Shown: positions 31,029-62,324, counted from the first letter of the stretch. The stretch: 64,000 nt of DNA from Terriglobia bacterium (GCA_963723055.1 CAVROV010000002.1:98633-162632); one strand, 5' to 3'. Notes: a model not told the origin generated them from the letters alone. Program-made: numbers and translations.

Positions 31029-32606
31029 ATGCCCAGCATCGTACAAGCTGCCGAATGGCTGCTGGGGCCGGAAGCCCCGGCCGAAACACCGCGCACTCAT
31101 CTGCTGCCGCGCTGGATCTTCCTTCGCGCTTTGGGCGTTATCTATTTTTCTGCGTTTTACTCGCTCATCTTTCAGATTAAAGGGCTCATCGGGCCGCATG
31201 GCATCCTGCCCGCCGTCAACTACCTGAGTGACGTGGCAAATTACTATCCGGGCGTCCAGCGTTTCTGGTTTGCTCCCACTCTGCTCTGGTTCGGCGCCGG
31301 CAATCACGCCTTGATGTTGATCACGTGGCTCGGGTTGATCGCGTCCGTCGCCGTGATCTTCAACATTTGTCCACGCGGGTCATTGGCGGTATGCTTTATT
31401 TGTTTTCTTTCTTTTGTTGCGGCAGCACAGGATTTTTCCGGCTATCAGTCCGATGGCATGCTCCTGGAAGCCGGTTTCATCTCTATCTTCTTTGCGCCGC
31501 CCGGTTTCCGACCCGGCATGGGCGCCGCGCATGCTCCTTCGCGTCTCAGCTTGTTTCTTCTTCGCTGGGAATGGTTCCGCATCTACTTCGAATCCGGCAT
31601 TGTGAAACTCACCAGTGGTGACTACTCCTGGCGGCACCTTACCGCCATGGATGACTACTACCAGAATGGCCCACTGCCCACATGGGTTGGCTGGTATGTG
31701 CAACAGCTTCCGCACTGGTTCCACGCAGCCACCGCCTTCATGACTCTGGCTGCAGAACTCGGGCTGGTCTGGATGCTCTTTCTTCCCCGACGTTTGAGGA
31801 TCATCTGCTTCCTGATCCTAACCCCGTTCCAGATAGGAATCATCCTTACCGCGAACTACACATTTCTCAATTATCTTGTCCTCGTGTTGGGCTTTCTCTT
31901 GCTTGACGACGGCTTTGTCCGCTCCGTGTTGCCGCAGCGCTGGAAGAATTGGGGTAGGCGGATTGCAACGGAGTCATCAGACGCGCAAGCCTCGCCGTCG
32001 CGCTCTACCGCATGGCTGCGACCGGTCTGGCGCAGCGTTGCTGCGATCTATCTCGGCTGGGTACTCTACGCGACGACTGCTTTGCTCCTCGCCATGATTC
32101 CGCATGCGCCGGGGCTTCCTCTGGGCCCGGCCCGCGCATTGGAGCCTTTTCGCATTGCCAACGAGTACGGCTTGTTCGCAAACATGACCCACGAGCGCTA
32201 CGAGATCGAATTCCAGGGATCTTCGGACGGGCAAAACTGGATCGCCTATCCCTTCCGCTACAAGCCTCAGGATGTGCATAAGGCGCCGGGCATCTACGCG
32301 CCTTACCAGCCGCGCTTCGAGTGGAACCTGTGGTTTGCCTCGCTCGGCAACTGGCGCAACTATCCCTGGGTCGTACAGACTGAAGCGCGTTTGTTGCGCA
32401 ATGAGCCAGATGTGCTGGCCCTCTTCGCGGGCAATCCTTTTGCAAACGCGCCGCCAAAACAAGTGCGCGCAGTGATCTGGCAGTACTGGTTCACTGACCG
32501 CGCCACCAAACACAAGGAAGGTACATGGTGGCGTCGGCAATTGCTGGGAATGTACGCCCCGATGGTCGAGCAAACACCAGATGGCAAGGTCGTCATGAGC
32601 CAATGA
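31029..32606 (+). CDS. lipase maturation factor (LMF1-like) family membrane protein
   Basis: LPRWIFLRALGVIYFSAFYSLIFQIKGLIGPHGILP N-terminus, and the C-terminal YEIEFQGSSDGQNW...YQPRFEWNLWFA block typical of the LMF family. Confidence 0.75.
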   Translation: MPSIVQAAEWLLGPEAPAETPRTHLLPRWIFLRALGVIYFSAFYSLIFQIKGLIGPHGILPAVNYLSDVANYYPGVQRFWFAPTLLWFGAGNHALMLITWLGLIASVAVIFNICPRGSLAVCFICFLSFVAAAQDFSGYQSDGMLLEAGFISIFFAPPGFRPGMGAAHAPSRLSLFLLRWEWFRIYFESGIVKLTSGDYSWRHLTAMDDYYQNGPLPTWVGWYVQQLPHWFHAATAFMTLAAELGLVWMLFLPRRLRIICFLILTPFQIGIILTANYTFLNYLVLVLGFLLLDDGFVRSVLPQRWKNWGRRIATESSDAQASPSRSTAWLRPVWRSVAAIYLGWVLYATTALLLAMIPHAPGLPLGPARALEPFRIANEYGLFANMTHERYEIEFQGSSDGQNWIAYPFRYKPQDVHKAPGIYAPYQPRFEWNLWFASLGNWRNYPWVVQTEARLLRNEPDVLALFAGNPFANAPPKQVRAVIWQYWFTDRATKHKEGTWWRRQLLGMYAPMVEQTPDGKVVMSQ

Positions 32607-46515: not shown

Positions 46516-47916
46516 TTACCAAAAGAACTTCATGAATCCCGTCGGAGGCAAATCAGCGACCACAAATTTCTGCCCGTGGCCCGTGCCTTCCATCAGCGCC
46601 TCAGCCGCGAGATATCCGCTACGGACGGCGCCTTCCATGGTGGCGGGCCAGCCGGTCGCCGTCCAATCGCCTGCGAGCAAAATGCGCGGCCATTGTGTTT
46701 TCGCCTCCGGACGAAACTTGTCGAGCCCGGGAAGAATTGCATAGGTGGCATAGATTTCCTTGATCACCGTAGCCTTGATCAACTTCGCTTGTAACACATC
46801 AGGAAAGAACTCGGCCAGCTCGCGCGTGGCCAGTTCCAGTATTTCTTCGCGCGATTTCTTTACCAGCGACCTGGATGCGCTCACTACCAATTCGACATAG
46901 CTGCCTTGGCCGGCCTGTTCCCGGTTCTCATGGAACTTTGATTTGTGAAACATCCACTGTATGGTGCGATCCAATAACACCGCATGCGGCAGCGGCGTGA
47001 TCTCACGATCAAACCAGAGATGAATCCCCGTGATAGAAGACGGCTCAAACTGCGCGAGCTGTTGCTTGATTGGTTTTGCTGATTCGTCCGCCGGAAGCAG
47101 GCTTGCGACGTTCTGAAATGGCGCGGCCAGCAAGGCGAAATCAAACTGCTGCTCCCCCGAACCAGTCAGCACTCCCACCTGGTCCTGCTTCGGTCCGATG
47201 GCAGTTACTGAGGACCGCAGCAACACCTGGCCTCCGCGCACTTGGATATATTCAATTGCGCTTCCGTACAAATCTGACAATGGAATGCTGGGAAGCCCCA
47301 TTCTGCCGGCCGCAGCAGACTTCATGAATGACTCGCGAAAGACCTGAGTTGCATAGCGCACGGAGATGCGATCCAGGCTCTCATTCAACGCGCTTACCAG
47401 CACCGTCTTCCAGAAGCGCTCAATCGCCTGTTCTGTCTGCTGATGCCGGCGCAGCCATGAAAGAAAATCTTCTGAAGAATCCTCGGGCAGACCACGGCTC
47501 ATCACGGCCATGGCTCGTGCGATCGCGATCTTATCCTTCGTGCTTAGCATTTTCGCGCCAAGAAATGTCGGTACATTGTGCATCGGCGCCGGCAAAAATG
47601 AAGGAGCCATTTTGCTGGCGCGCCCGCCAGGTTCAATGAAAGTCAGTTCGTCAAACCAACGGATCTTCCCGCTCACGCCCAGACGCTCGTAGAAATCAAT
47701 CAGGTTCGTGCAGCAACCCAGCAGCACATGCTGGCAGTTGTCCACCACCTCACCGGTGCCGGGATGTTCGTAAGAAGATGCCCGGCCGCCAACGTAGGGA
47801 CGCCGTTCAAAGATGGTGACGTGTAGTCCGGCGTCGGCCAGCGCGCAGCCCGCAGCCAGGCCAGCAAGCCCGCCGCCTACGATTGCGACACTGTACTGTC
47901 GAGTAACTGCTGTCAT
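46516..47916 (-). CDS. hpnE: hydroxysqualene dehydroxylase HpnE (FAD amine-oxidase family)
   Basis: VAIVGGGLAGLAAG...ERRPYVGGRA dinucleotide fold. Last gene of the hpnCDE triad, with a 4-nt overlap with hpnD. Confidence 0.85.
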   Translation of the reverse strand: MTAVTRQYSVAIVGGGLAGLAAGCALADAGLHVTIFERRPYVGGRASSYEHPGTGEVVDNCQHVLLGCCTNLIDFYERLGVSGKIRWFDELTFIEPGGRASKMAPSFLPAPMHNVPTFLGAKMLSTKDKIAIARAMAVMSRGLPEDSSEDFLSWLRRHQQTEQAIERFWKTVLVSALNESLDRISVRYATQVFRESFMKSAAAGRMGLPSIPLSDLYGSAIEYIQVRGGQVLLRSSVTAIGPKQDQVGVLTGSGEQQFDFALLAAPFQNVASLLPADESAKPIKQQLAQFEPSSITGIHLWFDREITPLPHAVLLDRTIQWMFHKSKFHENREQAGQGSYVELVVSASRSLVKKSREEILELATRELAEFFPDVLQAKLIKATVIKEIYATYAILPGLDKFRPEAKTQWPRILLAGDWTATGWPATMEGAVRSGYLAAEALMEGTGHGQKFVVADLPPTGFMKFFW

Positions 47917-48815
47917 GCGATGCGGAGCAGAAATCCGCGAGAGAGTACTTTCAATTTTTCCCAGAGAGTCAGCCGCACACGCTCCGTGAACACATCATAA
48001 TTGCGGTCCGTGATTTTCTGGAGGAGGCGGCTGTAAATTTCCACCAGGACCCACAATGCGGCCCGGCTGTCTTCATCAATCAGCTCCATCAGCCATTTCG
48101 CTGACTCGTAATACTTGCGCGCGCGTGCAGCTTCGTATTCCAACGCTGGCCGCAATTGCTGAGCCTGCGCCGGGTCTCGTAATATCGCACCCGCAAAGTT
48201 TGCTGCCGCAAGATTGCTACGCACCAGGTCTTCTGCAGGTATATAAATGCGCCCCATGGAAGCGTCTTCCTTTACGTCACGGATAATGTTGGTCAGCTGG
48301 AACGCCAGCCCGCAATCCTCGGCCAGAAATTCGGCTTTAGAGTCTTGATAACCAAAAATCCGGATGCATACCAGCCCTACGACAGACGCCACGTAATAGC
48401 AATATTGCTTCAGGTCTTCAAAGGTGTTGCAGAGGATGGCGGGAGATTCAGCTGAAGCGGGCGGAATGTCCAGATCCAGGCTGGTGCCATATACCAGCTT
48501 TTCAAACAGCTCCGCCGGAATCTTGAATTTGCTTTGCGCGTCGCCGAGGGCCATCAGCACAGGCTCGTCCGTTGCCTTGCCGGCAAAAACTGCCTGCGCG
48601 GCTCCCAGCCATTCGTTCAGCTTCAGCCGCTTCAACTGTGGATCGATACCGGGCTCGTCAGAGATATCGTCGGCGTGGCGCATGAACGCGTATACAGCAC
48701 TCAGCGCGTTGCGTTTTTCTGAGGGCAGCACCATGAAGCCATAATAGAAATTCTTTGCCGCTCGGCGTGAGATCCCCCGGCAAACCGCGTAGGCATGGCT
48801 GAGCTGATCGCTCAC
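47913..48815 (-). CDS. hpnD: presqualene diphosphate synthase HpnD
   Basis: Squalene/phytoene synthase family: NFYYGFMVLPSEKRNALSAVYAFMRHADDISD, NIIRDVKED. The C/D assignment relies on position. Confidence 0.8.
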   Translation of the reverse strand: MSDQLSHAYAVCRGISRRAAKNFYYGFMVLPSEKRNALSAVYAFMRHADDISDEPGIDPQLKRLKLNEWLGAAQAVFAGKATDEPVLMALGDAQSKFKIPAELFEKLVYGTSLDLDIPPASAESPAILCNTFEDLKQYCYYVASVVGLVCIRIFGYQDSKAEFLAEDCGLAFQLTNIIRDVKEDASMGRIYIPAEDLVRSNLAAANFAGAILRDPAQAQQLRPALEYEAARARKYYESAKWLMELIDEDSRAALWVLVEIYSRLLQKITDRNYDVFTERVRLTLWEKLKVLSRGFLLRIA

Positions 48816-49744
48816 AGCAGCTTGCCCATGGCCGCGCGCAGGACCAGGAGAAGTTTGCGGGACTTTGAAATCTCCGGACGCGCTCGCAGCACGTCAAAAC
48901 CCTGCCGTTCGATCGCGTTCAGAATTTCCTGCCCCCCCCGGCTGAACAGCTCAAGATCGATGGCCAGTTCTCGATTGACCATCTTTACCAGCGGGAGGCC
49001 CCGGACAAACCACTCACGCGCACGCTCGACCTCAAACTTCATCATGGCCACAAATTGCGGCGTTGCATGCCGCTGCACAATGTCTTCCCCGGTGACCCCA
49101 AAGCGGCGCAGGTCTTCCAGCGGCAGGTAAATGCGGCCTTTGCCATAATCGACAAAAATGTCCTGCCAGAAATTGGCCAGCTGCAGCGCGGTGCAGGTGT
49201 AGTCAGAAAGTTGCTGCCGCTCTGCATCACTGTAGCCGCAAAGATAAAGCACGAGATGTCCGACGGGGTTCGCCGAATATCGGCAGTAAGCCAGAATATT
49301 TTCAAACGTTTCAAAGCGCGTGACTGTCTGGTCCTGGCGGAAAGCGACCAGCAGGTCAGAAAATTCGTGCTTGGGAATGTTGCATTGCTTCACCGTTTCC
49401 GCCAAGGCGACAAATACCGGGTGCTTTGGCGATCCTGCATAACAAGCATTTAGCTCCGCTTCCCACTGGTCCAGCAGCTCCAGCGACTGCTGCGGGTCAC
49501 CCACTTCGTCGCCTAGATCGTCAGAGATGCGGCAGTATGCGTAAACATTGTAGAAGTGCTGGCGCAGGCGCCTGGGTAGAAACCATGTCGCGACGGAAAA
49601 GTTCTCGTAGTGCGTTTTTGCCAGCCGCTCGCAATATTCGCGCGCTTCCTCCAGGGAAGGGGCTGCAGCCGGAATACGATACGATTCCGGCAGCGCGTTC
49701 CATCCCAGCGGCATGGACGAAGTGCTTGTGCGCGTTACTGACAT
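48812..49744 (-). CDS. hpnC: hydroxysqualene synthase HpnC
   Basis: Squalene/phytoene synthase family: HYENFSVATWFLPRRLR, YCRISDDLGDE, NFWQDIFVD. First of the hpnCDE triad. Confidence 0.8.
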   Translation of the reverse strand: MSVTRTSTSSMPLGWNALPESYRIPAAAPSLEEAREYCERLAKTHYENFSVATWFLPRRLRQHFYNVYAYCRISDDLGDEVGDPQQSLELLDQWEAELNACYAGSPKHPVFVALAETVKQCNIPKHEFSDLLVAFRQDQTVTRFETFENILAYCRYSANPVGHLVLYLCGYSDAERQQLSDYTCTALQLANFWQDIFVDYGKGRIYLPLEDLRRFGVTGEDIVQRHATPQFVAMMKFEVERAREWFVRGLPLVKMVNRELAIDLELFSRGGQEILNAIERQGFDVLRARPEISKSRKLLLVLRAAMGKLL

Positions 49745-49746
49745 GA

Positions 49747-50781
49747 TCAGTGGCCGGGTATGATGGCCGTTTTTATCTGGCTCCCGCGGTCCAGCATCTG
49801 TTGCAGGACTTGCTTGAGTTTGGAGAGAGGCGCTTCACCGGTGACGTAGTCAGTGCTCTTAACGTTCTTTTCCGCAATCAATGAAAACGCTTTCCGAACG
49901 GTCTGCGGCGTGTGATGGAACGTGGCTTTCAGCGTGATTTCAGAATAATGCAGCCGGTTAGTGTCCAGTTCAACCTTGGTTCCGCTGGCGCAGCCGCCAA
50001 AGAAATTCACGACCCCGCCACGGCGGACCATTTCCACCGCCCATTGCCACGTTTGCGGCAGGCCTACGGCTTCAATCACAATGTCAGACCCGCGGCCCTC
50101 GGTAACACCAATCACCCGGTCGATGGGATTATGCGTCTTCCCGACCTGCACTACCTCGTCGGCGCCAAATCTTTTTGCCGCGGCTACCTGCTCGCCGCGT
50201 TTCACGACTGCGATCACTTTGCATCCGGTCAGCTTGGCCACCTGCACCAGCATCAGGCCCAGCGGCCCCGCGCCGATAACCGTTACGGTATCCCCGATGT
50301 CAGCGCCGGTCTCCTGCAACCCGCGCAATGCGCAGGCTAACGGCTCAGTCATGGCCGCCGATTCAAAGCTCAAGTCGTCCGGCAGCGCCAGCATATTGGT
50401 TTCAACAATGCGGCGGGGAATCTTGATGTACTCGGCATAAGCGCCGTTGTTGAACAAAAGGTCTTCGCAGATGTTTTCCTGGTGCTTCAAGCAATAAAAG
50501 CAGGAGCCACAAGGCGCGGAGTTCAGGGCAACGACTTTCATGCCACGGCGGAAGTCACGCACGCCCGGCCCAACCTCTTCAATCACTCCGGAAAGTTCAT
50601 GGCCAAACAGCGCCGGCGGAACAATCATGCGCGCGTGGTAACCGCGCTGGTAAACCTTGAGATCGGTCCCGCAGGTAAGCGCCACATTCACTTTCACCAG
50701 CACTTCACCGGTTTCAAGCGTCGGAATGGGCACCTTCTCAATCTTTATGTCCTCTTTGCCATAGAGGACCGCGGCTGTCAT
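49747..50781 (-). CDS. Zn-dependent medium-chain dehydrogenase/reductase (sorbitol/threonine-DH-like), embedded in the hopanoid operon
   Basis: LTCGTD, FGHE, structural-Zn loop CGSCFYCLKHQENIC, Rossmann VIGAGPLG. Start set at ATG 50781, which has aagga 5 nt upstream. The ORF track start at 50808 would overlap the upstream gene. Confidence 0.85.
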   Translation of the reverse strand: MTAAVLYGKEDIKIEKVPIPTLETGEVLVKVNVALTCGTDLKVYQRGYHARMIVPPALFGHELSGVIEEVGPGVRDFRRGMKVVALNSAPCGSCFYCLKHQENICEDLLFNNGAYAEYIKIPRRIVETNMLALPDDLSFESAAMTEPLACALRGLQETGADIGDTVTVIGAGPLGLMLVQVAKLTGCKVIAVVKRGEQVAAAKRFGADEVVQVGKTHNPIDRVIGVTEGRGSDIVIEAVGLPQTWQWAVEMVRRGGVVNFFGGCASGTKVELDTNRLHYSEITLKATFHHTPQTVRKAFSLIAEKNVKSTDYVTGEAPLSKLKQVLQQMLDRGSQIKTAIIPGH

Positions 50782-50789
50782 TTGTCCTT

Positions 50790-51911
50790 TCAAATATGTT
50801 TCTCCCATTCCATCCCCGGTTGGATGACAATCTTCATTGAATCCGGCGACGGATGCGAAGCCAGATGGATTGCCTCCACTGACTCTGAGAGCGGAAACCG
50901 GTGTGAAATCAACCGGGTAAAATCAATCTCTCCGCTGAACACCAGACGCACGTTTTCTTCCTGCAAATCGACGGACGCACTGTACGAGCCCATTAAGGTC
51001 TTTTCGTCCATGCAGACGGCTGCCGGATCAATCGCCGCTTCGCTCCGCTGCGTCTGCGCAAACAACATGATTTTTCCCCCGGGACGTGTCGCGTCCATTG
51101 CCGGCTTGATCAAACTGTTTCCCGCCGTCGCCAGGATCACAGCGTCTGCCCCGCGTCCGCCGGTAAGCTCCCGTACCCGTTGCGCAGGATCTTCCGGTCC
51201 CGCATTGACATTGTGCTGTAACCCGAATCTCTCACTTATTTTAAGGCGTTGGGGATACAAATCGGAAGTTACTACGGTCGCACCTGTCCGTTTGGCCAGT
51301 GCGGCCAGAATGATACCAATGGGCCCTTGCCCCACAACCAACACGGTTTCATCACTTTGCAGCTGAAGGGATGCAATGGCCTTTAGACATGTATTTACCG
51401 GTTCAATAAATGAAGCCTGTTCGTAAGAAACCTGGTCGGGAATTTTCACCACGCCTTTGCGTACGATCCAATCCATCACGCGGATGTACCCGGCAAAGCC
51501 GCCGCCGCTGGGCTCAAAACCTGCCGTGGCGCCGACGTTTTTGTATACCGGACATTGCGCAAACACCTTTTTTCGGCAGTAATAGCATTCGCCGCATGGA
51601 ATATGATGAAACACCATCACGCGATCGCCGATGACAAAGTTCTTTACACCCAGGCCCAGGGCCACAACCTGTCCAGCCATCTCATGGCCGAAAATGCGGG
51701 GCGCGGAATGCGAGCCAGTCAGAATTTTCTTCAAGTCGGTTCCGCAAATGCCGCAGGTATGCACGCGTACCAGCAATTCTCCCTGGCCAATTTCCGGGAC
51801 CGGGACTGTCTCCAGGCGGACATCGTTCTTACCGTGATAGACAGCAGCTTGCATTGTCCGGATGGGAGCGAGCCTGCCTTCAGCTGATTCGGGTTTGATG
51901 GCGGTTTGCAT
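50790..51911 (-). CDS. Zn-dependent medium-chain dehydrogenase/reductase, embedded in the hopanoid operon
   Basis: CGICGTD, FGHE, structural-Zn loop CGECYYCRKKVFAQC, Rossmann VVGQGPIG. The ATG lies 2 nt after the hpnG stop; an alternative start is at 51854. Confidence 0.85.
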   Translation of the reverse strand: MQTAIKPESAEGRLAPIRTMQAAVYHGKNDVRLETVPVPEIGQGELLVRVHTCGICGTDLKKILTGSHSAPRIFGHEMAGQVVALGLGVKNFVIGDRVMVFHHIPCGECYYCRKKVFAQCPVYKNVGATAGFEPSGGGFAGYIRVMDWIVRKGVVKIPDQVSYEQASFIEPVNTCLKAIASLQLQSDETVLVVGQGPIGIILAALAKRTGATVVTSDLYPQRLKISERFGLQHNVNAGPEDPAQRVRELTGGRGADAVILATAGNSLIKPAMDATRPGGKIMLFAQTQRSEAAIDPAAVCMDEKTLMGSYSASVDLQEENVRLVFSGEIDFTRLISHRFPLSESVEAIHLASHPSPDSMKIVIQPGMEWEKHI

Positions 51912-51913
51912 GA

Positions 51914-52660
51914 TTAACGTTTTGCTTCCAGGAACTCTGCTCTACTGAGTGTAACAATTTCTTTCGACCGCACCCCGCTGGCAAAGTCCTTCTCCAGCCG
52001 GTTGCATAGTGACTCTGTGGCTCGCTTGCTGTTTCTCGCCAAAGCCATAATCCTTGCCCATTGCCACGGCCGCACAGCAGCCCACAAAGCGAACCTGCCG
52101 CTCTGAAACTCTCCAGCAGCGTTCAGAAATTGTCCCATCGGCGGCATGACAAAATCAGCTTCATCAGAAACGGCTTTCACGCAGCGAAACCCAATTTGTT
52201 CCTGTTGTGCAATTCGAGCTACTCCCGCCGCTTCCATATCGACGACCAACCCATGAAAGCGATTTACCAGTGCCCGCTTGGCTTCCACTCCTGCAACTTC
52301 TCCTGAACTAACCAACACTCCACCACTCACGTGGTTGCTATCCGCGGCGCATCGATATTCTGCTCCGTCAGCCGCGTCAACCACCACGTTAGGCGTAAAA
52401 ATGCTGCCGATTTTCAGGCTCCGTATCAGCGCGCCTGCCAGCCCAACAGATATCAGAAGCGTCGGCCGATATTGCGCCACAATTGCGCGGGTCGCCAGAT
52501 CCGCATTCTTGCACCCGATTCCAGAAACGACCGCAAGGACGCCATCGCGTTGAAATAGCATGAAATTTTTTTCGCTTGAAGAAAGCATGACTCTTTGCCA
52601 TCCGCGCACCAGTGGCGAGATCTCTCGCTCCATAGCAGCGATGATTGCGATCGTGCTCAT
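51914..52660 (-). CDS. hpnG: hopanoid-associated phosphorylase / adenosylhopane nucleosidase HpnG (PNP/MTAN fold)
   Basis: IAIIAAMEREI N-terminus, VVDMEAAGVA block of the nucleoside phosphorylase-I family. Located between hpnA and the hpnCDE side of the locus. Confidence 0.8.
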   Translation of the reverse strand: MSTIAIIAAMEREISPLVRGWQRVMLSSSEKNFMLFQRDGVLAVVSGIGCKNADLATRAIVAQYRPTLLISVGLAGALIRSLKIGSIFTPNVVVDAADGAEYRCAADSNHVSGGVLVSSGEVAGVEAKRALVNRFHGLVVDMEAAGVARIAQQEQIGFRCVKAVSDEADFVMPPMGQFLNAAGEFQSGRFALWAAVRPWQWARIMALARNSKRATESLCNRLEKDFASGVRSKEIVTLSRAEFLEAKR

Positions 52661-53676
52661 GCATTCACCGTCGCAACCTGATCCAGCTCTTCAACATATC
52701 CATGCTCCTGGAACCAATCGACGGCACGACGCAGCGCATTTTCAACAGGTATAACCTTGTAGCCGAGTTCCCGCTCGGCCTTTGCCGACGATGCAAACAT
52801 TTTCTTGCGGCCCATCTTCACCGCGTCAACGGTAGCCCGAGGCTCTTTGCCCAGAATTGTCCCGGTAAAGAACTGGTCAAATACCGCAAATCCCATGGCG
52901 ACCATGTGAGGAACCTGCATCGTTGGCGCCCGTAGGCCAGTGATTACGGAGAGCTTGTCGAGGATCTGTTTCAACGTCAGATTCTCACCACCCAGGATGT
53001 AACGCTGGCCCGGCCGCGCCTTTTCCATAGCCAGCAAGTGCCCGCGCGCCACTTCCTTCACGTCGGCCAGATTCAGCCCGGTATCAACGTAGGCAGGAAA
53101 TTTTCGCTTGAGGAAATCGACCACGATCCTTCCTGTCGGCGTTGGCTTGATGTCATACTCGCCAATCGGCGTCGTGGGATTTACTACCACTACGTTCGCG
53201 CCGCTGATCCCTGCTTCCAGGGCAATCTGCTCTGCCATGAATTTTGACCGCTTGTAATGTCCCACCATTTCTTTGATCGAAACCGGCGAGTCCTCTCCAG
53301 CGATGAGACCTTCGCGCGTGAAGCCCATCGTGGCTACGGAACTGGTATAGATCACGCGATGCACGCCGCTTTCCTGCGCGGCGCGGATAATCGCCCGCGT
53401 GCCTTCGACGTTCGAACGGTACATCTGCGCCGGATCGCGCACCCACAGCCGGTAGTCGGCGGCCACGTGGAATACAAATTCACAGCCGGCCATCGCTTTT
53501 TTCAGCGATTCCAGATCGCGCAGATCGCCAGTGGCTGTTTCAGCCCGCAGGTCGGCGATGTTGTCCAGACGGCTTGTCGAACGAACGAGCAATCGCAGCT
53601 CAGCCCCTTGCGCCGCCAATGCTCGCGCCACATGGCTGCCGACAAATCCCGTCGCTCCTGTGATGAAGACTTTCAT
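52657..53676 (-). CDS. hpnA: hopanoid-associated NAD-dependent sugar epimerase/dehydratase HpnA
   Basis: MKVFITGATGFVGSHV, the YKRSK catalytic Y-x3-K. Context and size match HpnA. Confidence 0.8.
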   Translation of the reverse strand: MKVFITGATGFVGSHVARALAAQGAELRLLVRSTSRLDNIADLRAETATGDLRDLESLKKAMAGCEFVFHVAADYRLWVRDPAQMYRSNVEGTRAIIRAAQESGVHRVIYTSSVATMGFTREGLIAGEDSPVSIKEMVGHYKRSKFMAEQIALEAGISGANVVVVNPTTPIGEYDIKPTPTGRIVVDFLKRKFPAYVDTGLNLADVKEVARGHLLAMEKARPGQRYILGGENLTLKQILDKLSVITGLRAPTMQVPHMVAMGFAVFDQFFTGTILGKEPRATVDAVKMGRKKMFASSAKAERELGYKVIPVENALRRAVDWFQEHGYVEELDQVATVNA

Positions 53677-53722: not shown

Positions 53723-54151
53723 CTACTCCAGCGCTTCCGCCTGGATCCCGATGTTCTTTTCCCCTGCAGCCTTTTTCTCCCAGTACTTTCGCACCCAGGC
53801 CTCAAAGCTTTTTCCCGCGGCAGTATCGCGTCCGCTGAAGGCCAGCGCGGCGATCTCTGAATATGGAATGGAAATTTTCTGGTCCGCGTCCTTGGGGAAA
53901 AGTCGCACTGCGGAATCGGCCAGGGTTTTGCCTGTACGCCGGTCAAAAATGTAACCTTCGACCTTGCTGCCATCTTTGCGAGTAATGGTCACGTCACCAC
54001 GGTAATCGAAGGCTTTCTCCAGAGCCTGCCGTACCTCTTCCTCGCCCGCTAATTCCGGTACCCAGCCTTCCAGCTTTTCATGCTTGAATCCCGGCGCGAC
54101 TTCCATCGAGTCGGCGTTCTTGATCGCGTTGCTTTCTGACGGACCGGTCAT
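53723..54151 (-). CDS. hypothetical protein translationally coupled to hpnH
   Basis: 142-aa soluble-looking ORF. Its ATG overlaps the hpnH stop (ATGA at 54148-54151). No family recognised. Confidence 0.6.
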
Positions 54152-55275
54152 GCGCTGGTCTCCTCATACTGGCTGGAAGATTCTTCAATCTGCACGAGCG
54201 GGTTGTAGCTGTGCACCGGCCGCACATGCTCATTCAACAGTTTCATCGCGTGTTCATCTTTATGGCGGGTGAAGATCGTCGCTTTTGCCGTGGCCAGCAT
54301 GCCGCGGAGCGAACTAAACGTTTCATTCACCGCCGACGCCTCATAGCCGCTATGTACCATGCAGTTGGCGCACTTCGGATTGCCCGATTCCGTTCCGTAT
54401 TCTTCCCAAGCCGTACTGTCCATCAACTCCTGGAATGTGTCGGCATAACCGTCCTGAAGCAGGTAGCACGGCTTTTGCCAGCCAAAAATGTTGTAGGTGG
54501 GCATGCCCCAGGGAGTGCAGGCATACTGACGCTCACCCATCAGGAAGTCGAGGAACAACGGCGACTGGTTGAACTGCCAGCTCTTCTTGCGGTTCGAAAG
54601 GATGGCGCGAAACAGTTTGCGCGTGCGCGCCCGGCCAAGAAAATGTTTCTGGTCCGGCGCTTTGTCGTAGGAGTATCCGGGCGAAAGCATCATGCCCTCT
54701 ACGCCCAGTTCCATCATCTGGTCAAAATGTTCGCGGACACTATTGGGATCGGCTCCATCGAACAATGTGGTGTTTGTGGTCACGCGAAAGCCGCGCCGCA
54801 GCGCTTCCTTCATGCCTTCAATGGCCTGATCGTATCCACCTTCGCGACAGACGGAAAAATCATGATGCTCCCGCTCGCCATCCACGTGGACCGAAAACGT
54901 CAGGTATTTGCTCGGCTTGAACAGATCGAGCTTTTCTTTGAGCAGCAGCGCATTGGTGCAGAGATAGATATATTTCTGCCGCGCCACCAATCCTTCCACA
55001 ATCTTGCCGATCTGGGGATGCATCAACGGCTCGCCGCCGGGAATACTTACCATGGGAGCGCCGCATTCATCCACCGCGCGGAAGCATTGCTCGGGCGTAA
55101 GTTCCTTCTTCAGGATGTGCGCCGGATACTGGATTTTGCCACAGCCCGCACACGCGAGGTTGCAGCGAAATAGCGGCTCCAGCATCAACACCAGCGGATA
55201 GCGCTTGCGTCTGGCCAGCTTTTGTTTGACAACGTAGCTCGCCACCGTCCACATCTGTGAAATTGGTACCGGCAA
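54148..55275 (-). CDS. hpnH: adenosyl-hopene transferase HpnH (radical SAM)
   Basis: [27 protein letters not shown] radical-SAM cluster. TTG start at 55275 with AGGAGA 6 nt upstream. The longer ORF to 55416 would overlap shc. Confidence 0.9.
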
Positions 55276-55363
55276 ATCAGGTCTCCTAAATTCTTTTTTT
55301 ACAGCCGAGGGCGGCTGTGCTCCAAAATCGTCGTGGACCGCAGGCGCCCTCGCCTGCGAACAT

Positions 55364-57367
55364 CTACCCTCTTGCGTACCCGACGCTTCCCTCTTCATAC
55401 AACGCCGAGAAATCACGCGCGTATGCCGACAGCGCGATCAGAGGGAAATAATCGCGATAGAGGTGGTATGCCAGGTAAAACACTCTAGGAAAGCCGGTGC
55501 CTGTGTACTGGTCTTCGTCCCAGTGTCCATCAAGCCGCTGCGTTTCCAGCAGGTAGAGAATGCCGCGCTGCACTGAATCGCTGCGTGTATCGCCAGCGGC
55601 AAGCAATCCCATCACTGCCCATGCGGTTTGCGATGGCGCGCTTGGCCCAATGCCGCGGGTGGTCGCATCGTCATATGAGCCGCAGCTTTCGCCCCAGCCG
55701 CCGTCAGAGTTCTGCACCATGCGCAGCCATTCTGCGCCCTGCTGCACGTAAGGCTCGTGATGGTCCACGCCCATGGCCTGCAAGCCGCGCAACACAAGCA
55801 TGGTTCCGTAAATATAGTTCACGCCCCAGCGGCCCAACCACGAGCCATCAGACTCCTGCTCGCTCAGGATGAACTTGATCGCCTTCTGAACACGCTTGTC
55901 GTCCCCGCCAACACCATACGCTGCCAGCATCTCCAGCACCCGACCCGTGATGTCCACAGTTGGTGGATCGAGCATCGCATTGTGGTCAGCAAAGGGAATG
56001 TTCTGGAAAACCATGCGCGTATTGTCCTTGTCAAAGGACGCCCAGCCCCCGCTCTTGCATTGCATGGCAAAAATCCAGTCGATGGCTCGTTTGCACACGT
56101 CATGCTGGTACCGTTCCCGCGGATTTTCTACCTTGTCCAGACCCAGCAGAACCATGGCTGAATCGTCCACGTCAGGATAGAACTCATTATTGAACTCAAA
56201 GTACCAGCCGCCCGGCTCGACGTTCGGAACCTTCACGGCCCAATCACCCTTAGTGCGTACTTCCTTGCTCAAAATCCAGTCCGCCGCTTTCAGCATGCGC
56301 GGATCACTCTTAGGCACGCCACTCTCGCCCAGCGCGAACATCGCCAACGCGGTATCCCACACCGGAGACATGCAGGGCTGCATGCGGAACGTCGGCTCCG
56401 AATGGTTAGCGATGCTGGCTTCTTCAATGCCAAGCTTCTCAAATTCCGCCAGCGCGCGCATCACCTGCGGATCATCCGTTGAGTAGCCCAGGCAGCGCAG
56501 AGCGACGATCGAATTCAGAATGCCGGGATAAATCGCGCCCAACCCGTCGGACTTTTCAAAGCGCGCCAACATCCAGCGCTCAGCTTTCTTGAGCGCCAGG
56601 TAGCGGAGCGGACGAATGTGGAACCGTTCGCAGAAGTGGACTACGCGGTTCAGCACCAGGAAGAAGTTTCTCCACGAAATCTTCTTCGCGGCCCACTTCA
56701 GGTGCAGATGTTTCCCGTGACGCCCGCCCACAAACAGCTCGTCAATTCCCATTTCCGCCGGCACTTTCTTGAACGGCTTTCTGGCGTAGGCAATGGACAG
56801 CGGGACCAGGATGGCGCGGGACCAGGACGAAATCTCATACAAGTTGAACCAGAACCAGTTAGGAAAGAGAACAATCTCCGGCGGAATCGCCGGCACGGCT
56901 TCCCAATCATACTGCCCCAGGAAACACAGATAAATCTTAGTGAACGTGTTGCATTCCGTGGCGCCGCCAAGATCCAGGATTTGCGTGCGCGCGCGCTCCA
57001 GCACAGGATGGTCCGGTTTATAGCCCATCAGCTTCAGTGCAAAATAAGCCTTCACGGAAGCGCTGATATTGGAAGGCCCACCGGCATAAATTGGCCAGCC
57101 GCCATCGACGTTCTGGTGGCGAATGATCTCCGGCACCGCGCGCTCCATGCGGCTGCGGTCGCCGGTGCCCAGAAGGGTGTGTATAGCGATATAGTCCGAT
57201 TCCAGAGTCGTATCGGCTTCCAGTTCGCCACACCAGTAGCCGTCTTTGTGCTGTTGCGCGAAGAGATAGTCACGCGCCTTTTCAATGCCAAAGGAGACGC
57301 GGCCCAGCATGTCGTCGATTTTTCCAAAAAGCATGTGCGCTGCTTGCGCGCCAAATTTCTTGCTCAT
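55364..57367 (-). CDS. shc: squalene-hopene cyclase
   Basis: DVDDSAMV (DxDD) catalytic motif. Multiple QW repeats (QxxDGGW, Qxx[13 protein letters not shown]). Confidence 0.95.
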
Positions 57368-57370
57368 GGA

Positions 57371-58339
57371 CTACTCCGCGGCAGCGGGTGCTGCCGCAAT
57401 CGCTTCCACAATCTCCGGCGGCAGGCCAAAACGGACGTTTTCCGGCATGACCTCCACTTCGCGGATTGTGGTAAACCCTTTCCCCTTCAAAAAGTCGATC
57501 ACCTGCTCAACCAGTATCTCCGGGGCGGATGCACCCGCCGTGAGCGCAACCGTCTTGATTCCGGTAAGCCAATCCGGTTGTATGTCGCTCGCAGTGTCGA
57601 TCAGGTAAGAAGGCGTTCCCAGGTTCGTGGAAACCTCTACCAGCCGGTTGGAGTTAGAACTGTTCTCAGATCCCACTACCAGCAGCAGGTCGGCTTGGTG
57701 CGCCACGTCTTTCACCGCGGTCTGGCGGTTCTGCGTGGCATAACAGATGTCCTGGGCATGAGGCCCTTCGATCAACGGGAACTTTATCCGCAACGCGTCA
57801 ATCACGTCTTTAGTTTCGTCCAGGCTAAGCGTGGTCTGGGTGATGTAGGCAATCCGCGTGGGATCGGGAACCTCCAGCGCATCAACTTCACTGGCGCTGC
57901 CCACTACCTGGGTAACTTCAGGGGCTTCGCCCAGAGTGCCGATCACCTCGTCATGATCATGATGACCAATCAGGATGATGCTGTAGCCACCCCTGGCGTA
58001 CTTTACCGCTTCGACGTGGACCTTGGTCACCAGCGGGCAAGTGGCATCGATCACCCGCAGATCACGCAGCTTGCTGGCCTCGCGAACGCTGGGCGAGACG
58101 CCATGAGCGCTATAAATAAGACGTTGGCCGTCTGGAACCTCATAAACTTCATCAACAAAGATCGCGCCCTTGGCTTTCAATTCTTCCACCACATAGCGGT
58201 TATGGACGATTTCTTTACGCACATAGATCGGCGGCCCAAAGGCGTCCAGCGCAATGCGGACGATATCAATGGCCCTCACAACTCCGGCGCAAAAACCCCG
58301 GGGCTTCAGCAGTAATAAAGTCTTAGCTTCTGGTGTCAT
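57371..58339 (-). CDS. ispH: 4-hydroxy-3-methylbut-2-enyl diphosphate reductase
   Basis: KPRGFCAGVVRAI, SAHGVSP, ATCPLVTKVH, GHHDHDEV, CYATQNRQ. Start taken at ATG 58339. Confidence 0.9.
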   Translation of the reverse strand: MTPEAKTLLLLKPRGFCAGVVRAIDIVRIALDAFGPPIYVRKEIVHNRYVVEELKAKGAIFVDEVYEVPDGQRLIYSAHGVSPSVREASKLRDLRVIDATCPLVTKVHVEAVKYARGGYSIILIGHHDHDEVIGTLGEAPEVTQVVGSASEVDALEVPDPTRIAYITQTTLSLDETKDVIDALRIKFPLIEGPHAQDICYATQNRQTAVKDVAHQADLLLVVGSENSSNSNRLVEVSTNLGTPSYLIDTASDIQPDWLTGIKTVALTAGASAPEILVEQVIDFLKGKGFTTIREVEVMPENVRFGLPPEIVEAIAAAPAAAE

Positions 58340-58600
58340 TGTGATCTGTTGATTATACCTTTTATACACTTTTCCCTGCCTGTATCTTAACCAATAAAGA
58401 ACTCTCAGACTAAGCCAACCCATTGAATTATCGATATTTAGCAGTAATCTGGGAGTATCTGAGGGTAAACGGGGACGGGGTCAAGGGCTTGGTTTTTTCT
58501 TTCTTGTAAAATCGCGTCAAATGCCCTTAGCATACGTGCTGCTATGGAAATCCATTTTGGGCCCAAAGTCCCGCAACACACCGTTTTGCGGCGTTTAGGA

Positions 58601-60448
58601 ATGTTCAGGTTCCTTTTCGAAGTTTTATTTGCCATTCTGCTTGCATGTCTCTCGTGCTCCGCTGCTGAGAACCAATGGGCTGAGGTACGCAGCCAGCACT
58701 TCCGGGTAATTACAGATGGCAGTGAAAAGGACGCCCGCCGCGTGGCGCGCGAGTTTGAACAGATCCGTTTTGCCATGAGTTCGGTCTATCCCAAGCTTCG
58801 TCTCGATTCAGGCTCTCCCCTCCTGGTCATGTGTCCCCGCGACGAATCCAGCATGAAGGTCCTGGCCCCACAATACTGGAAACGTAAAGGGTTCAAGCCT
58901 GCTGGTTTTTTTCAGCACGGCTGGGACAAGGAATACGCCGTGGTTCGGCTCGATGAATTGCGGCCTGAGAGCTACGAAGTTGTTTATCACGAGTATGTGC
59001 ATAGCGTCATGCATCTGAATCTGCGCTGGCTGCCGGTGTGGCTCGACGAGGGCCTCGCCGACTTCCATGCCAATACACGTTTTGAGAAGACAAAACTGTA
59101 CGTGGGCGCGCCCAGTTGGCGACTTCGCATCCTGCGCTCCCGTCCACCCATCCCGCTCAGTACTCTCTTGAGCGTGAAGCCGGGCTCGCCCTATTATCGC
59201 GACGAAGATAAAGCCGACTTATTTTATGCCGAGTCGTGGTTGCTTACCCACTATCTATTCTTTGGGCCAGGCATGGAGAGCGGCAAGAAGTTGTTGCGAT
59301 TCATCTCTCTGCTGGATGACACCGAACAGATAAAGGCATTTGAAGAGGTATTTGGCAGCATCGAGGCGGTGGAAAAAAACCTGGATATGTATGGCCGAAA
59401 CTTCACCATGGCAGGGGGCACTTTGAATACCCCCGCCAGCACCGACGAGAAGGAATTTAAATCACGCCGGATGTCTGCGGCGGAAACCGAGGCGGAGCTC
59501 GGCAGCTATCACCTGTGGTCCCATGCTCGTGAACTGGCTCGCCCACTCATCGAACAAGCTTTGAAAGACGATCCCACCCTGGGCTTGGCACATGAAGATA
59601 TGGCCTTCCTCAACTTTGCCGAAGGCAAAGATGAGGATGCGGTTCGTGAATTCAACCAGGCGGTCGCTCTCGACTCAAAACTGTATCTATCGCTCTTCTC
59701 CTCAACCATGATGTCACCGGCAGCTCGCTCGGATGCGCCTGCCGACCAGGCTGAATTTGAGCGCGCCCTCCTGAAAGTGCTCGATCAGGACCCGCAATTC
59801 GCTCCCGCCTTCGTCCAGATTGCCCGGCTCTACGTGCGGCAGGGCAATCTGGAACGAGCTTACGGTGTAGCCCGAAGGGCTGAAGGCCTGGAACCAGCGC
59901 GCGCCGGCTACCATCTGTTGAGCGGACGGATACTGCAAATGATGGGCCGAGACAAGGAAGCCGCAGGTTTTGCCCGCTTTGTGGCCAGTCGTTGGCCGGG
60001 GCCGGATCACGATGAGGCTCTTGAACTATGGAACAGCGTGCCTGCAGCGCAACGCCCTGCCGTAGAAGCGATGACTTCCTCCGTGATCGCCGGAACTCAG
60101 GTAGTAGAAGCACCCGTGAAATCGGTGCATTGTGGCCGTAGCGAAGAAAACGAAGACCAGAAATATACCCTCGTCATCGAGCAAGGCGGCCATGAGCTTG
60201 CATTTCAGCCGAAAGGCGGGTTCGGCGTCGGATACTCTGACACTTTGTGGTGGGGCAGAGACCACTTTAGCTCCTGCCTGCACATAAAAGGGATTCGCGC
60301 GGTTGTGCACTACAGACCATCCGCCGACCCGAAATATGCTGGTGAGTTGGCCCGGCTGGATCTGCGTGATGACCTTCCGCAGCTTCCGTTGCAGCCGAAA
60401 CGGGCTGACAGCAGCTTGCCTGCCCCGAAGTCCGAGAATAACCGATGA
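58601..60448 (+). CDS. secreted HExxH metallopeptidase-like protein with C-terminal TPR repeats
   Basis: Signal peptide MFRFLFEVLFAILLACLSCSAAE. HEYVHSVMH zinc motif (DUF1570/MA-clan-like). TPR-like helices at about residues 330-470. Confidence 0.65.
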   Translation: MFRFLFEVLFAILLACLSCSAAENQWAEVRSQHFRVITDGSEKDARRVAREFEQIRFAMSSVYPKLRLDSGSPLLVMCPRDESSMKVLAPQYWKRKGFKPAGFFQHGWDKEYAVVRLDELRPESYEVVYHEYVHSVMHLNLRWLPVWLDEGLADFHANTRFEKTKLYVGAPSWRLRILRSRPPIPLSTLLSVKPGSPYYRDEDKADLFYAESWLLTHYLFFGPGMESGKKLLRFISLLDDTEQIKAFEEVFGSIEAVEKNLDMYGRNFTMAGGTLNTPASTDEKEFKSRRMSAAETEAELGSYHLWSHARELARPLIEQALKDDPTLGLAHEDMAFLNFAEGKDEDAVREFNQAVALDSKLYLSLFSSTMMSPAARSDAPADQAEFERALLKVLDQDPQFAPAFVQIARLYVRQGNLERAYGVARRAEGLEPARAGYHLLSGRILQMMGRDKEAAGFARFVASRWPGPDHDEALELWNSVPAAQRPAVEAMTSSVIAGTQVVEAPVKSVHCGRSEENEDQKYTLVIEQGGHELAFQPKGGFGVGYSDTLWWGRDHFSSCLHIKGIRAVVHYRPSADPKYAGELARLDLRDDLPQLPLQPKRADSSLPAPKSENNR

Positions 60449-60499
60449 GTTCGGCAGGCCGTTGAAGAAAATTGTGCTTTGAAGCGGCAGGCCTGGTCT

Positions 60500-62177
60500 T
60501 TATCCATTCGCTTTTAGTAACTGCTCTGCGTGCTGGCGTGATGTCTCCGTCAGCTTCTCGCCGCTCAACATCCGCGCAATCTCTTCCGTCTGCTCGGCTG
60601 CGGTCAATGCGCGGACGAGACGTCCTCGTTCGCCCCGCTGTCTCGCGTTTTTCGATCAAATAATGATGGTCAGCGAATGACGCGATCTGCGGCAGGTGCG
60701 TAATGCACAGCACCTGGTTCGCCCTGGCCAGCGACTTCAGCTTCTTGCCCACAGCTTCTGCTGCGCGCCCCCCAATGCCGGTATCGATCTCGTCGAATAC
60801 CAAGGTGCGCTGCGTGCCACCTTTGCTCTTCTTCCCCGCCTCAATCGTAGCTTTGAGCGCCAGCATCACGCGTGAAAGCTCGCCGCCGGAGGCAATCTGC
60901 TCCACCGGCTTCAGCGGCTCACCGGGATTGGGTGAGATCATGTAAGCCACGCCATCAAAGCCTGATGCCGTCCAGTTCGCCGGCTCGTCCGCACCGGAAA
61001 CTTCAATCCTGAACTGTGCCTTCATCGCCAGCTGGTTAATTTCCGTTTCAACCAGCTTCTGCAATTCCCTCGCGGCGCTGTAGCGTCGCTTTGAAACCGT
61101 CTGTGCCGCAGCCAGGTAAGCCGCAGCCACAGCCGTAAGTTGCTTTTTCAGGTCGCGCACCACGTCTTCGCGATTTTCCAGCTCATCCAGCTTGCCTGCA
61201 ACATCTGCGCCGTAAGCAATCACCTCATCAACCGTTTTGCCGTATTTGCGCTTCAGCCGATCGAAAACCGCCAGCCGGTCTTCCACCTCAGCCAGCCGTT
61301 CGGGTGACGCGTCGATGCCATCAGCGTAATCACGCGCCGTAGCGCTCACGTCTTCAATCGCCACCTTCGCCGATTCCAGTGCTGCCAGCGCTTCCAGAAA
61401 TTTTTCATCGAAGCGCGCCAGCTCTTCCAGTTGTTTGCGTGCCGCGGAGATGTTCGTCAACGCCGAAGCATCATCTTCATACAAGACCTGGTAGGCGGCC
61501 GTGGCCGCACCGAAGAGCTTTTCAGAATTTGCCAGGACGCGCTTCTCCGTCTCCAGCTTTTGATCTTCCCCCGGCTGAAGCCTGGCCGCTTCGATCTCCT
61601 TTTTCTGGAAGCTCCACAGGTCGGCCATGCGCAGGCGGTCCTGCTCATCGCGATCAAACTGCGCCAGCCTCTCGCGCACTTCGGCCCAGACAGCATGCTT
61701 TTCCGCCAGATCGCTGAGATCATGACCGGCATAGGTATCCAGCAGCCCCAGGCGGGCAGCTTCATCAAAAGCCAGGATCGTCTGATTCTGTGCGTGGATC
61801 GAGGCCAGCGCTGGCGCTAGAGCGCGCAACAGCGCCACTGTGGCTGGCTGGTTGTTGACGAAGACCCGACCCTTGCCGCCGGCGGCAATCTCGCGTTTTA
61901 CGATGACATGGTTCCCTTCCGGCTCAATCCCGTTCTCTTCCAGCAGCCGCTCCACGCGCTTTTCATCGGCTTCAAAAACCCCGCTGACTACGGCCTTTTC
62001 CGCGCCATGGCGAATCATGTCCGTGGAAGCTTTGTCACCCAGCAATAAAGATAGAGCGTCGATCAGGATTGACTTGCCTGCACCGGTCTCTCCCGTAAGC
62101 AGGTTCAGTCCCGGGGCAAACTCCACCGCCAGGCTGTCAATTACGGCATAGCTTTCGACGCGAAGCTCCAGCAGCAC
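60500..62177 (-). CDS. recN: DNA repair protein RecN, apparent frameshift at the cccc run 60633-60636
   Basis: GTG start giving LLELRVESYAVID...LTGETGAGKSIL (Walker A), FDEIDTGIGG (Walker B). After ...HHYLIEKRET the product continues in another frame as GERGRLVRALTAAEQTEEIARMLSGEKLTETSRQHAEQLLKANG-stop at 60500. Confidence 0.85.
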
Positions 62178-62324
62178 CGAAACAAACCTCAGAAAGGAAA
62201 TTGAGCGCAGTCTAACAGAGATTGGGAACAAATGGGTAAACGGAGAGTCCGCCAGACGAGCCGCCTTGCGGTATATTATCCCGGTATTTCAATTCACTCT
62301 CGCTTTTATCTGAAAGGCGGTCCC

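Follow-up and report, generated by a model that had tools for sequence, protein, structure and literature searches.

Which enzymes complete the side chain of bacteriohopanepolyols (BHPs), the major bacterial membrane lipids and precursors of geohopanes? The question is raised by a hopanoid operon located in a stretch of 64,000 nucleotides from a Terriglobia bacterium (GCA_963723055.1, CAVROV010000002.1:98633-162632), hereafter the window, where two consecutive genes for Zn-dependent medium-chain dehydrogenases/reductases (MDRs), MDR1 and MDR2, are inserted between an hpnG-like gene and hpnC. Terriglobia are dominant bacteria of soil and peat. Genes are still lacking for several steps of hopanoid synthesis, including the conversion of ribosylhopane to bacteriohopanetetrol (BHT) and the formation of side-chain stereoisomers and of penta- and hexafunctionalised forms, and the roles of HpnA, HpnB, and HpnL belong to the same list. 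The original prediction, made for this locus from its sequence, proposed the two dehydrogenases as candidates for the ribosylhopane-to-BHT step, and its premise holds: the enzyme was still described as unassigned in November 2025 (PMC12583986), and a scheme in which this step is non-enzymatic is still reproduced in a review of August 2026 (PMC13459092).

The answer obtained here is narrower. As far as can be judged from sequence and gene order, MDR1 and MDR2 form an obligate, presumably co-translated, and catalytically intact pair of Zn-dependent enzymes, which is an accessory module of squalene–hopanoid clusters. Being strictly paired, of predicted NAD and NADP types, and present in hpn clusters of several phyla, the module provides a concrete and cheap-to-test candidate for hopanoid chemistry. 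It should be regarded as a good experimental lead rather than a solution to the ribosylhopane question, and should not be presented as a universal missing reductase.

Pairing and genomic neighbourhood

The two genes have already appeared in the hopanoid literature. They are the ug1 and ug2 genes of Sinninghe Damsté et al. (2017, Front Microbiol 8:968, PMC5462960), who described three acidobacterial hopanoid clusters: A (ug2-hpnC-hpnD-hpnE), B (ispH/ispA-shc-hpnH-ug3), and C (hpnA-hpnG-ug1). In that work, ug1 is a "Zn-dependent alcohol dehydrogenase (ca. 370 AA)" located after hpnG, ug2 is a "Zn-binding alcohol dehydrogenase (ca. 350 AA)" located before hpnC, and ug3 encodes a hypothetical protein of about 150 amino acids (aa), the function of all three being given as "not established". 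ug2 was present in every acidobacterium examined from subdivisions (SD) 1 and 3, and ug1 was found in cluster C of SD1 and SD3; for the ribosylhopane-to-BHT step, hpnA was put forward. Thus, the association of ug1 and ug2 with hopanoid clusters has been published, while the reductase hypothesis for these genes has not. The present analysis adds that the pairing is obligate, that the predicted cofactor types (NAD and NADP) are complementary, that the pair is spread beyond Acidobacteriota, and that hpnCDE, not hpnG, is the conserved neighbour.

When 1.84 billion cluster representatives were searched exhaustively, a narrow family emerged, in which about a dozen full-length 50%-identity clusters above approximately 270 bits (41–66% identity) precede an unbroken series of generic MDRs. 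At least 591 loci were found when GTDB was scanned with one genome per species; the best 80 of them were taken, and all of these are Terriglobia-type (as assigned by record title or high MDR1 identity), with 63–87% MDR1 identity, three of them being metagenome-assembled genomes (MAGs) labelled as other phyla. Eighty further loci were obtained from a metagenome scan, and targeted look-ups were made for subfamilies 42–56% identical to MDR1, the taxonomic breadth being assembled from the metagenome scan and single look-ups. Synteny was established by tblastn and extraction of open reading frames (ORFs), with orthologues recovered from 168 loci (designated L below, and individual proteins P).

An MDR2 orthologue lies no more than 500 nt downstream of MDR1 in all 144 loci that have at least 1.3 kb of downstream sequence. 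The pairing extends to the subfamilies only 42–56% identical to MDR1 (L083, L084, L085, L166, L167, L168, and L169), and its carriers comprise Terriglobia, a Planctomycetota-type MAG group (L084), an Armatimonadota MAG (L168), and a marine TARA lineage (L169). The pair is a new subfamily of a very well-known enzyme superfamily. Its edge is marked by P0254 (L170:5844-6902), a 43%-identical MDR1-like gene that has HetR and PatX in its cyanobacterium-like surroundings; it has no MDR2 partner and does not belong to the pair family. Several candidate fusions were discarded: P0468 (582 aa) and P0001 (505 aa), considered as MDR1–MDR2 or duplicated fusions, are artefacts of frameshifts and assembly, and P0342 is a tandem MDR but is only 28% identical.

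On the downstream side, the gene next to the pair is hpnC, hpnD, or hpnE in 123 of 128 loci (113 of 115 Terriglobia-type loci and 10 of 13 loci from other lineages), and these genes are the sole hpn neighbours in L085, L094, L166, and the Armatimonadota locus L168. Such constancy could mean that the pair serves the HpnC/D/E squalene branch, where its substrate would be hydroxysqualene, with its allylic secondary alcohol, farnesol or presqualene-alcohol by-products, or a squalene product that is not an extended hopanoid; MDRs of the enzyme branch in question can accept lipophilic secondary alcohols, the substrates of BchC being an example. However, no redox step is missing in this part of the pathway, as HpnD, HpnC, and HpnE cover the three steps from farnesyl diphosphate to squalene according to the summary in PMC7306690. 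The clusters of most hpnCDE-bearing bacteria, e.g., Alphaproteobacteria, lack such a pair, and one lineage carries the pair between hpnA and hpnD-shc without hpnC or hpnE. Pan et al. in 2015 are said to have found that hpnC, hpnD, and hpnE suffice in E. coli. The adjacency can also be explained by gene order within one operon, with no biochemical link needed. A role in the squalene branch appears quite improbable.

The upstream side is more variable. hpnG directly precedes the pair in 78 of 124 Terriglobia-type loci and in approximately one of 11 other loci (only L122). Synteny with hpn genes at the operon level was found in lineages whose orthologues are 42–87% identical to MDR1 and in at least three arrangements: ispH-shc-hpnH-hpnA-hpnG-pair-hpnCDE, ispH-hpnA-pair-hpnD-shc, and pair-hpnCDE. 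The second arrangement defines a lineage group with the order ispH-hpnA-MDR1-MDR2-hpnD(-shc) and without hpnG (L083, L092, L161, and L158); hpnA lies directly 5′ of the pair in these four loci and in L139. HpnC, HpnD, and HpnA were recognised above their cut-offs in L166, L168, L083, L092, and L122. In split clusters, the pair remains with hpnCDE, and the ispH-shc-hpnA-hpnG block is inverted or missing. Since hpn synteny is kept through at least three architectures and across phyla, a functional link of the pair to the squalene–hopanoid pathway is well supported. The partners that stay constant in evolution are MDR2 and hpnC/D/E, with hpnA somewhat less so.

The inverted ispH-shc-hpnA-hpnG block was seen in about one third of Terriglobia-type loci (L022, L026, L031, L032, L035, L041, L047, and others), with approximately 4–5 kb carrying a recN-like gene and unrelated ORFs between the block and MDR1-MDR2-hpnCDE; in the window, a recN-like gene lies near the operon as well (60267-62231). 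The idea that a divergent hpnG precedes the pair of the Planctomycetota type (L084) was rejected, as the product of the upstream gene has no similarity to the hpnG-like protein of the window and no PNP_UDP_1 match.

The position of MDR1 immediately downstream of hpnG, which recurs in the 78 loci mentioned above, was the argument from which the original prediction started. It would fit a function of MDR2 (most plausibly, as the NADP(H)-type enzyme) or of both proteins as a dedicated reductase converting open-chain ribosylhopane into BHT in these lineages, and the absence of an assigned enzyme for the step leaves room for it, as does the judgement, relayed in PMC5462960, that the competing candidate hpnA is non-essential in Burkholderia. 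However, hpnG adjacency no longer holds for about one third of the Terriglobia-type loci and for almost every other lineage, where the pair keeps hpnCDE; being one arrangement among several, this adjacency lends less weight to the ribosylhopane step than had been supposed. In addition, the pair does not accompany hpnG and hpnH wherever BHT is made. C. thermophilum (Chloracidobacterium), which has no ug2, produces BHT and BHT cyclitol ether (PMC5462960), and BHT is made with alphaproteobacterial hpn clusters that lack the pair: in 48 such clusters, the same laboratory looked for clustered candidates and saw none besides hpnA/B/L/M, although BHT occurs in 27 of the 46 producers. Since organisms without the pair make BHT, the pair is not the universal missing reductase. 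Thus, the expected synteny with hpn genes across lineages was confirmed, while co-localisation with hpnG in all BHT producers was not. What is left of the proposal is a narrower version, in which MDR2 may be a clade-specific NADPH-dependent ribosylhopane reductase.

Zinc sites, cofactor signatures, and family

MDR1 (50790..51911, minus strand, 373 aa) and MDR2 (49747..50781, minus strand, 344 aa, or 353 aa if the alternative start at 50808 is used) share 31% identity. Both have the domain order of the Zn-dependent MDR superfamily, ADH_N (PF08240) followed by ADH_zinc_N (PF00107), with scores above the gathering thresholds. MDR1 bears the motifs HTCGICGTD with the catalytic Cys56, GHE (His76/Glu77), C106-x2-C109-x2-C112-x7-C120, and GQGPIG, and their counterparts in MDR2 are LTCGTD, GHE, CGSCFYCLKHQENIC, and GAGPLG. 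The catalytic Zn would be held by C56, H76, E77, and E170 in MDR1 and by C37, H61, E62, and E146 in MDR2, and the Rossmann glycines are G194/G196/G199 and G170/G172/G175, respectively. The four-Cys structural zinc lobe (CxxCxxCx7C), formed by C106/109/112/120 in MDR1 and C91/94/97/105 in MDR2, is invariant in aligned orthologues. Taken together, the catalytic and structural ligands and the Rossmann glycines are invariant in 165 MDR1 orthologues and kept in 144–145 of 145 MDR2 orthologues, and this conservation, along with that of the cofactor motifs, leads to the prediction that both MDRs are active enzymes.

The two proteins differ where Rossmann strand β2 ends. In MDR1, this position is Asp217, and Asp is present in all 165 orthologues; in the alignment, it is matched by Asp in 4cpd and 7y9p, which are NAD enzymes, and by Ala199 in the NADP-dependent ketose reductase 1e3j. 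MDR2 has V193-K194-R195, and essentially all of its 145 orthologues have V/G/A followed by K/R and then R/H; V193 aligns with the Asp of 4cpd, with the Glu of L-threonine dehydrogenases (TDHs), and with T-R of 4ej6, whose sister entry 4ejm presumably contains NADP as the bound ligand. MDR1 is thus predicted to be of the NAD(H) type and MDR2 of the NADP(H) type. The signature of MDR2 would suit a ribosylhopane reductase, the more so as Bodlenner et al. in 2015 reportedly used NADPH for the cell-free reduction. Yet the reduction of one aldehyde does not call for a strict pair with an NAD-type member, and the closest solved relatives use secondary alcohols or ketones rather than aldehydes, though at about 30% identity this is a weak objection. 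On balance, a dedicated ribosylhopane reductase is unlikely.

The family assignment is clear at the level of the branch. The best matches of both MDRs in the PDB (E approximately 1e-38, 24–29% identity) are the whitefly NADP-ketose reductase 1e3j, the Thermus enzyme TADH (4cpd), and archaeal and bacterial TDHs, along with sorbitol, xylitol, arabinitol, and 2,3-butanediol dehydrogenases. The AlphaFold2 (AF2) model of MDR1 has a pLDDT of 91, and Foldseek aligns it with TM scores of 0.76–0.83 to many MDR structures, including butanediol, ketose, and threonine dehydrogenases; these are generic MDR neighbours only and give no clue to the substrate. The AF2 model of MDR2 (pLDDT 54), built from a shallow alignment of closely related sequences only, was not used, so the MDR fold is shown for MDR1 alone. 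None of the NCBIfam models reached its cut-off with either MDR or with the next-closest relatives of the pair. The model of L-threonine 3-dehydrogenase (TIGR00692/NF003808) gave 170.5 bits with MDR1 and 169.7 bits with MDR2 against a cut-off of 458, and that of the scyllo-inosose 3-dehydrogenase IolM (NF041097) gave 173 and 166 bits against 450; BchC was another of the weak matches. MDR1 and MDR2 are therefore Zn-MDRs of the polyol/threonine-dehydrogenase branch to which no substrate assignment can be transferred.

The F-R-Y stretch of ketose reductase and sorbitol dehydrogenase is a polyol-contacting motif. In MDR1, it is replaced by S-Y-S, as "frycndy" of 1e3j aligns with "ysasvdl", and in MDR2, according to an alignment inspected by eye, the same position is occupied by a conserved F-H-H-T-P. 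The His of C-G-S/T-D-V-H is Lys in both MDRs, and MDR1 has family-specific features of its own, namely a TAGFxPxGGGF insertion and an HH-[IV]-PC motif. Accordingly, the description of the two proteins as polyol- or sugar-type MDRs is right as to the branch and finds no support in the F-R-Y motif.

A soluble substrate has nevertheless to be considered. The pair might act on a polyol, a sugar or sugar phosphate, or an amino alcohol in the supply of head groups or precursors, or might be merely co-regulated with membrane-lipid genes. The JGI automated annotation, L-iditol 2-dehydrogenase, points in this direction, and four loci carry the pair without hpn neighbours. Glycosyltransferase genes of the PMT_2/GT-C type recur near the pair in L083, L168, and L169, a threonine-aldolase-like gene precedes it in L168, and the 38%-identical relative P0263 is fused to a sugar-phosphate nucleotidyltransferase domain. 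On the other hand, synteny with hpn genes in lineages only 42–56% identical and in at least three arrangements is hard to explain without a functional link, no model of a characterised sugar or threonine dehydrogenase reaches its cut-off, and the polyol-contacting motif of 1e3j is not conserved. A soluble metabolite as the substrate is therefore judged rather improbable, and the label L-iditol 2-dehydrogenase should not be used for these proteins.

Some details of these loci may be recorded separately. The PMT/PMT_2 genes (GT-C, ArnT-like) lie at L083:13076-13816, L168:128-1858, and L169:9885-11633, within a few kb of the pair, and their occurrence in three mutually divergent lineages may reflect a glycolipid connection or a coincidence. 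The threonine-aldolase-like enzyme of the Armatimonadota MAG (L168:8946-9977), a pyridoxal phosphate-dependent protein with a Beta_elim_lyase match of 321 bits, is encoded directly upstream of the pair. P0263 (602 aa) consists of an N-terminal PF00483/PF12804 domain and an MDR domain 38% identical to MDR1; this nucleotidyltransferase–MDR fusion was placed outside the family and may be a polyol-phosphate activating enzyme.

A possible two-step redox module

The explanation tentatively preferred here, although its chance of being right is somewhat less than even, is that MDR1 and MDR2 constitute a lineage-restricted two-step redox module working on a hopanoid-pathway lipid. Both enzymes would act in succession on one such lipid, MDR1 performing the NAD+-linked oxidation of a carbinol or hemiacetal and MDR2 the NADPH-linked reduction of a carbonyl. 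Overall, an oxygen function would be inverted or moved, the ribose-derived C32–C35 side chain of ribosylhopane or BHT being the most plausible site. Reduction of the C-35 aldehyde of the open-chain form by MDR2 could be a step of this module, which would then represent clade-specific tailoring or an alternative route and not a universal ribosylhopane reductase. A two-step module is favoured over a lone reductase because a single aldehyde reduction leaves an obligate pair of opposite predicted cofactor types unexplained. Redox chemistry at the ribose unit also has a precedent, since PMC4263297 cites a report of ribonylhopane, an oxidised ribosylhopane, from R. palustris mutants.

Several observations weigh against this explanation. 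The most conserved neighbour of the pair is hpnC/D/E, not hpnG or hpnH, and in L084, L167, L119, and L169 no hpn gene was found within approximately 9–10 kb of the pair. The cofactor preferences are read from the sequence alone, and the substrate cannot be predicted from proteins that are about 30% identical to any characterised enzyme and reach no NCBIfam cut-off. As the F-R-Y motif is kept in neither MDR, a sugar-like substrate is not implied. To our knowledge, BHPs that bear a keto group or deviate in side-chain configuration have not been described from Acidobacteria. The Rohmer degradation on which Sinninghe Damsté et al. relied (PMC5462960) is blind to both alterations.

A more specific version assigns the chemistry to the ribose unit by analogy with DprE1/DprE2, which act on decaprenyl-phosphoribose. 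MDR2 would open ribosylhopane to BHT with NADPH, and the NAD+-dependent MDR1 would act at C-34 (C-2′ of the ribose), so that a 34-keto intermediate or a 34-epimer could arise and the pair would be the genetic basis of BHT stereoisomers of the 34R type. Such stereoisomers serve as environmental biomarkers. This epimerase version is the least probable of the proposals discussed and should be considered a long shot. If the two-step module does alter the side chain in one way or another, the reading of BHP signatures in soil and peat would be affected.

Operon layout and known systems compared

In the window, the operon consists of eleven co-oriented ORFs on the minus strand, running from 58423 to 46516 and joined by 4-nt overlaps or very short gaps, in the order ispH-shc-hpnH-(142-aa ORF)-hpnA-hpnG-like-MDR1-MDR2-hpnC-hpnD-hpnE, as identified with NCBIfam and Pfam models. 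The first gene, ispH (57371..58423), matches NF002189 with 448 bits, and shc (55364..57367), encoding squalene–hopene cyclase, matches TIGR01507 with 743 bits, both above the NCBIfam cut-offs. hpnH (54148..55416), encoding the radical S-adenosylmethionine enzyme adenosylhopane synthase, reaches 554 bits with TIGR03470, again above the cut-off. The longest hpnH ORF starts with GTG, comprises 422 aa, and shares 53 nt with the 3′ end of shc; as the HpnH model match starts at residue 50 and the orthologue from L001 has 375 aa, the true start is probably located downstream of 55416, inside the longest ORF. The hpnH stop overlaps by 4 nt with the 142-aa ORF (53723..54151), which corresponds to ug3 and has no Pfam or NCBIfam match; its product looks hydrophilic, with no obvious membrane segment, and the gene is kept directly 3′ of hpnH in related loci. 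It is followed by hpnA (52657..53676), which encodes the hopanoid-associated "sugar epimerase" of the short-chain dehydrogenase/reductase (SDR) superfamily (TIGR03466, 500 bits, cut-off 368).

The hpnG-like gene (51914..52660) encodes a nucleoside phosphorylase/nucleosidase with a PNP_UDP_1 domain (PF01048) and evolves much faster than its neighbours, the protein showing 29–64% identity across Terriglobia loci versus 63–87% for MDR1. An automated annotation would not name it HpnG, as its best match, the HpnG model TIGR03468, scores 90 bits against a cut-off of 187; the name hpnG was given to this acidobacterial gene in 2017 by Sinninghe Damsté et al. (PMC5462960). Downstream of the pair, hpnC (48812..49744, hydroxysqualene synthase) reaches 359 bits with TIGR03464 (cut-off 250), hpnD (47913..48815, presqualene diphosphate synthase) has TIGR03465 as its best match with 238 bits, slightly below the cut-off of 278.6, and the last gene, hpnE (46516..47916, hydroxysqualene dehydroxylase), is above the cut-off with 495 bits for TIGR03467.

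The junctions are tight. The hpnG-like gene and MDR1 are separated by 2 nt (TAA-tc-ATG), as are MDR2 and hpnC (TGA-tc-ATG). Between MDR1 and MDR2, there is either an 8-nt gap (aaggacaa, with AGGA inside) before ATG 50781 or a 19-nt overlap with ATG 50808; the start at 50781 is most likely because homologues are 344/348 aa long. Overlaps of 4 nt connect hpnH with the 142-aa ORF, hpnA with hpnG, hpnC with hpnD, and hpnD with hpnE. The description of two intact, co-oriented, and tightly packed genes in a hopanoid operon was therefore accurate in all its motifs and junctions, including the 4-nt overlaps of the flanking hpn genes, with a reservation for one spacing. Many MDR1 orthologues align only from residue 19–20, and residues 1–14 are of low confidence in the AF2 model, which makes the 2-nt distance between hpnG and MDR1 less certain, as it requires the use of the first ATG. 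Within the operon, promoter-like and terminator-like sites are not more common than in shuffled sequence, and no Rfam elements were found. Elsewhere in the window, an ORF on the plus strand (31029-32606) matches the eukaryote-typical LMF1 and LMF1_C domains (179 and 152 bits) in what is apparently a Terriglobia genome.

Among known systems, the nearest is that of ug1 and ug2 themselves (PMC5462960), which are the same genes; there, they were members of separate clusters, while here they form an obligate adjacent pair that extends beyond Acidobacteriota and has complementary predicted cofactor signatures. With polyol dehydrogenases and TDHs (1pl6, 1e3j, 7y9p, 2dfv/3gfb, and 6ie0), the pair shares the domain order and the fold, as far as the latter is known from the MDR1 model, and a putative catalytic Zn site composed of Cys, His, an adjacent Glu, and a second Glu (E170 in MDR1 and E146 in MDR2). 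The four-Cys structural zinc lobe is common to both MDRs, TDH, and ketose reductase. The pair differs from this branch in that identity is only 24–29% in structural alignments and no curated cut-off is reached. HpnA (TIGR03466) is likewise an NAD(P)-dependent oxidoreductase accompanying hpn clusters, and in one lineage group its gene stands directly 5′ of the pair; unlike the MDRs, it belongs to the extended SDR superfamily and is widespread in Proteobacteria, where the MDR pair has not been reported.

Ribulose-5-phosphate reductase of the TarJ type, also an MDR, uses NADPH to convert a pentose carbonyl into a ribitol unit and works with a cytidylyltransferase in the formation of CDP-ribitol. 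MDR1 differs from it by the NAD-type Asp, and no nucleotidyltransferase is encoded near the pair. P0263 resembles TarIJ in combining a nucleotidyltransferase with an MDR; its partner domain is PF00483/PF12804, and identity with TarIJ is not established.

Finally, oxidoreductive pairs that use NAD+ and NADPH offer a parallel to the proposed module. The fungal pentose pathway combines an NADPH reductase with an NAD+ polyol dehydrogenase, and DprE1/DprE2 epimerise decaprenyl-phosphoribose. By analogy, MDR1 and MDR2, which are likewise encoded together, would act in succession, the former as the oxidising and the latter as the reducing enzyme, and in the case of DprE1/DprE2, even the substrate, ribose on a polyprenoid lipid, may be compared with ribosylhopane. 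DprE1 is a flavoenzyme and DprE2 an SDR, unlike the two MDRs, so the likeness is one of logic and not of homology.

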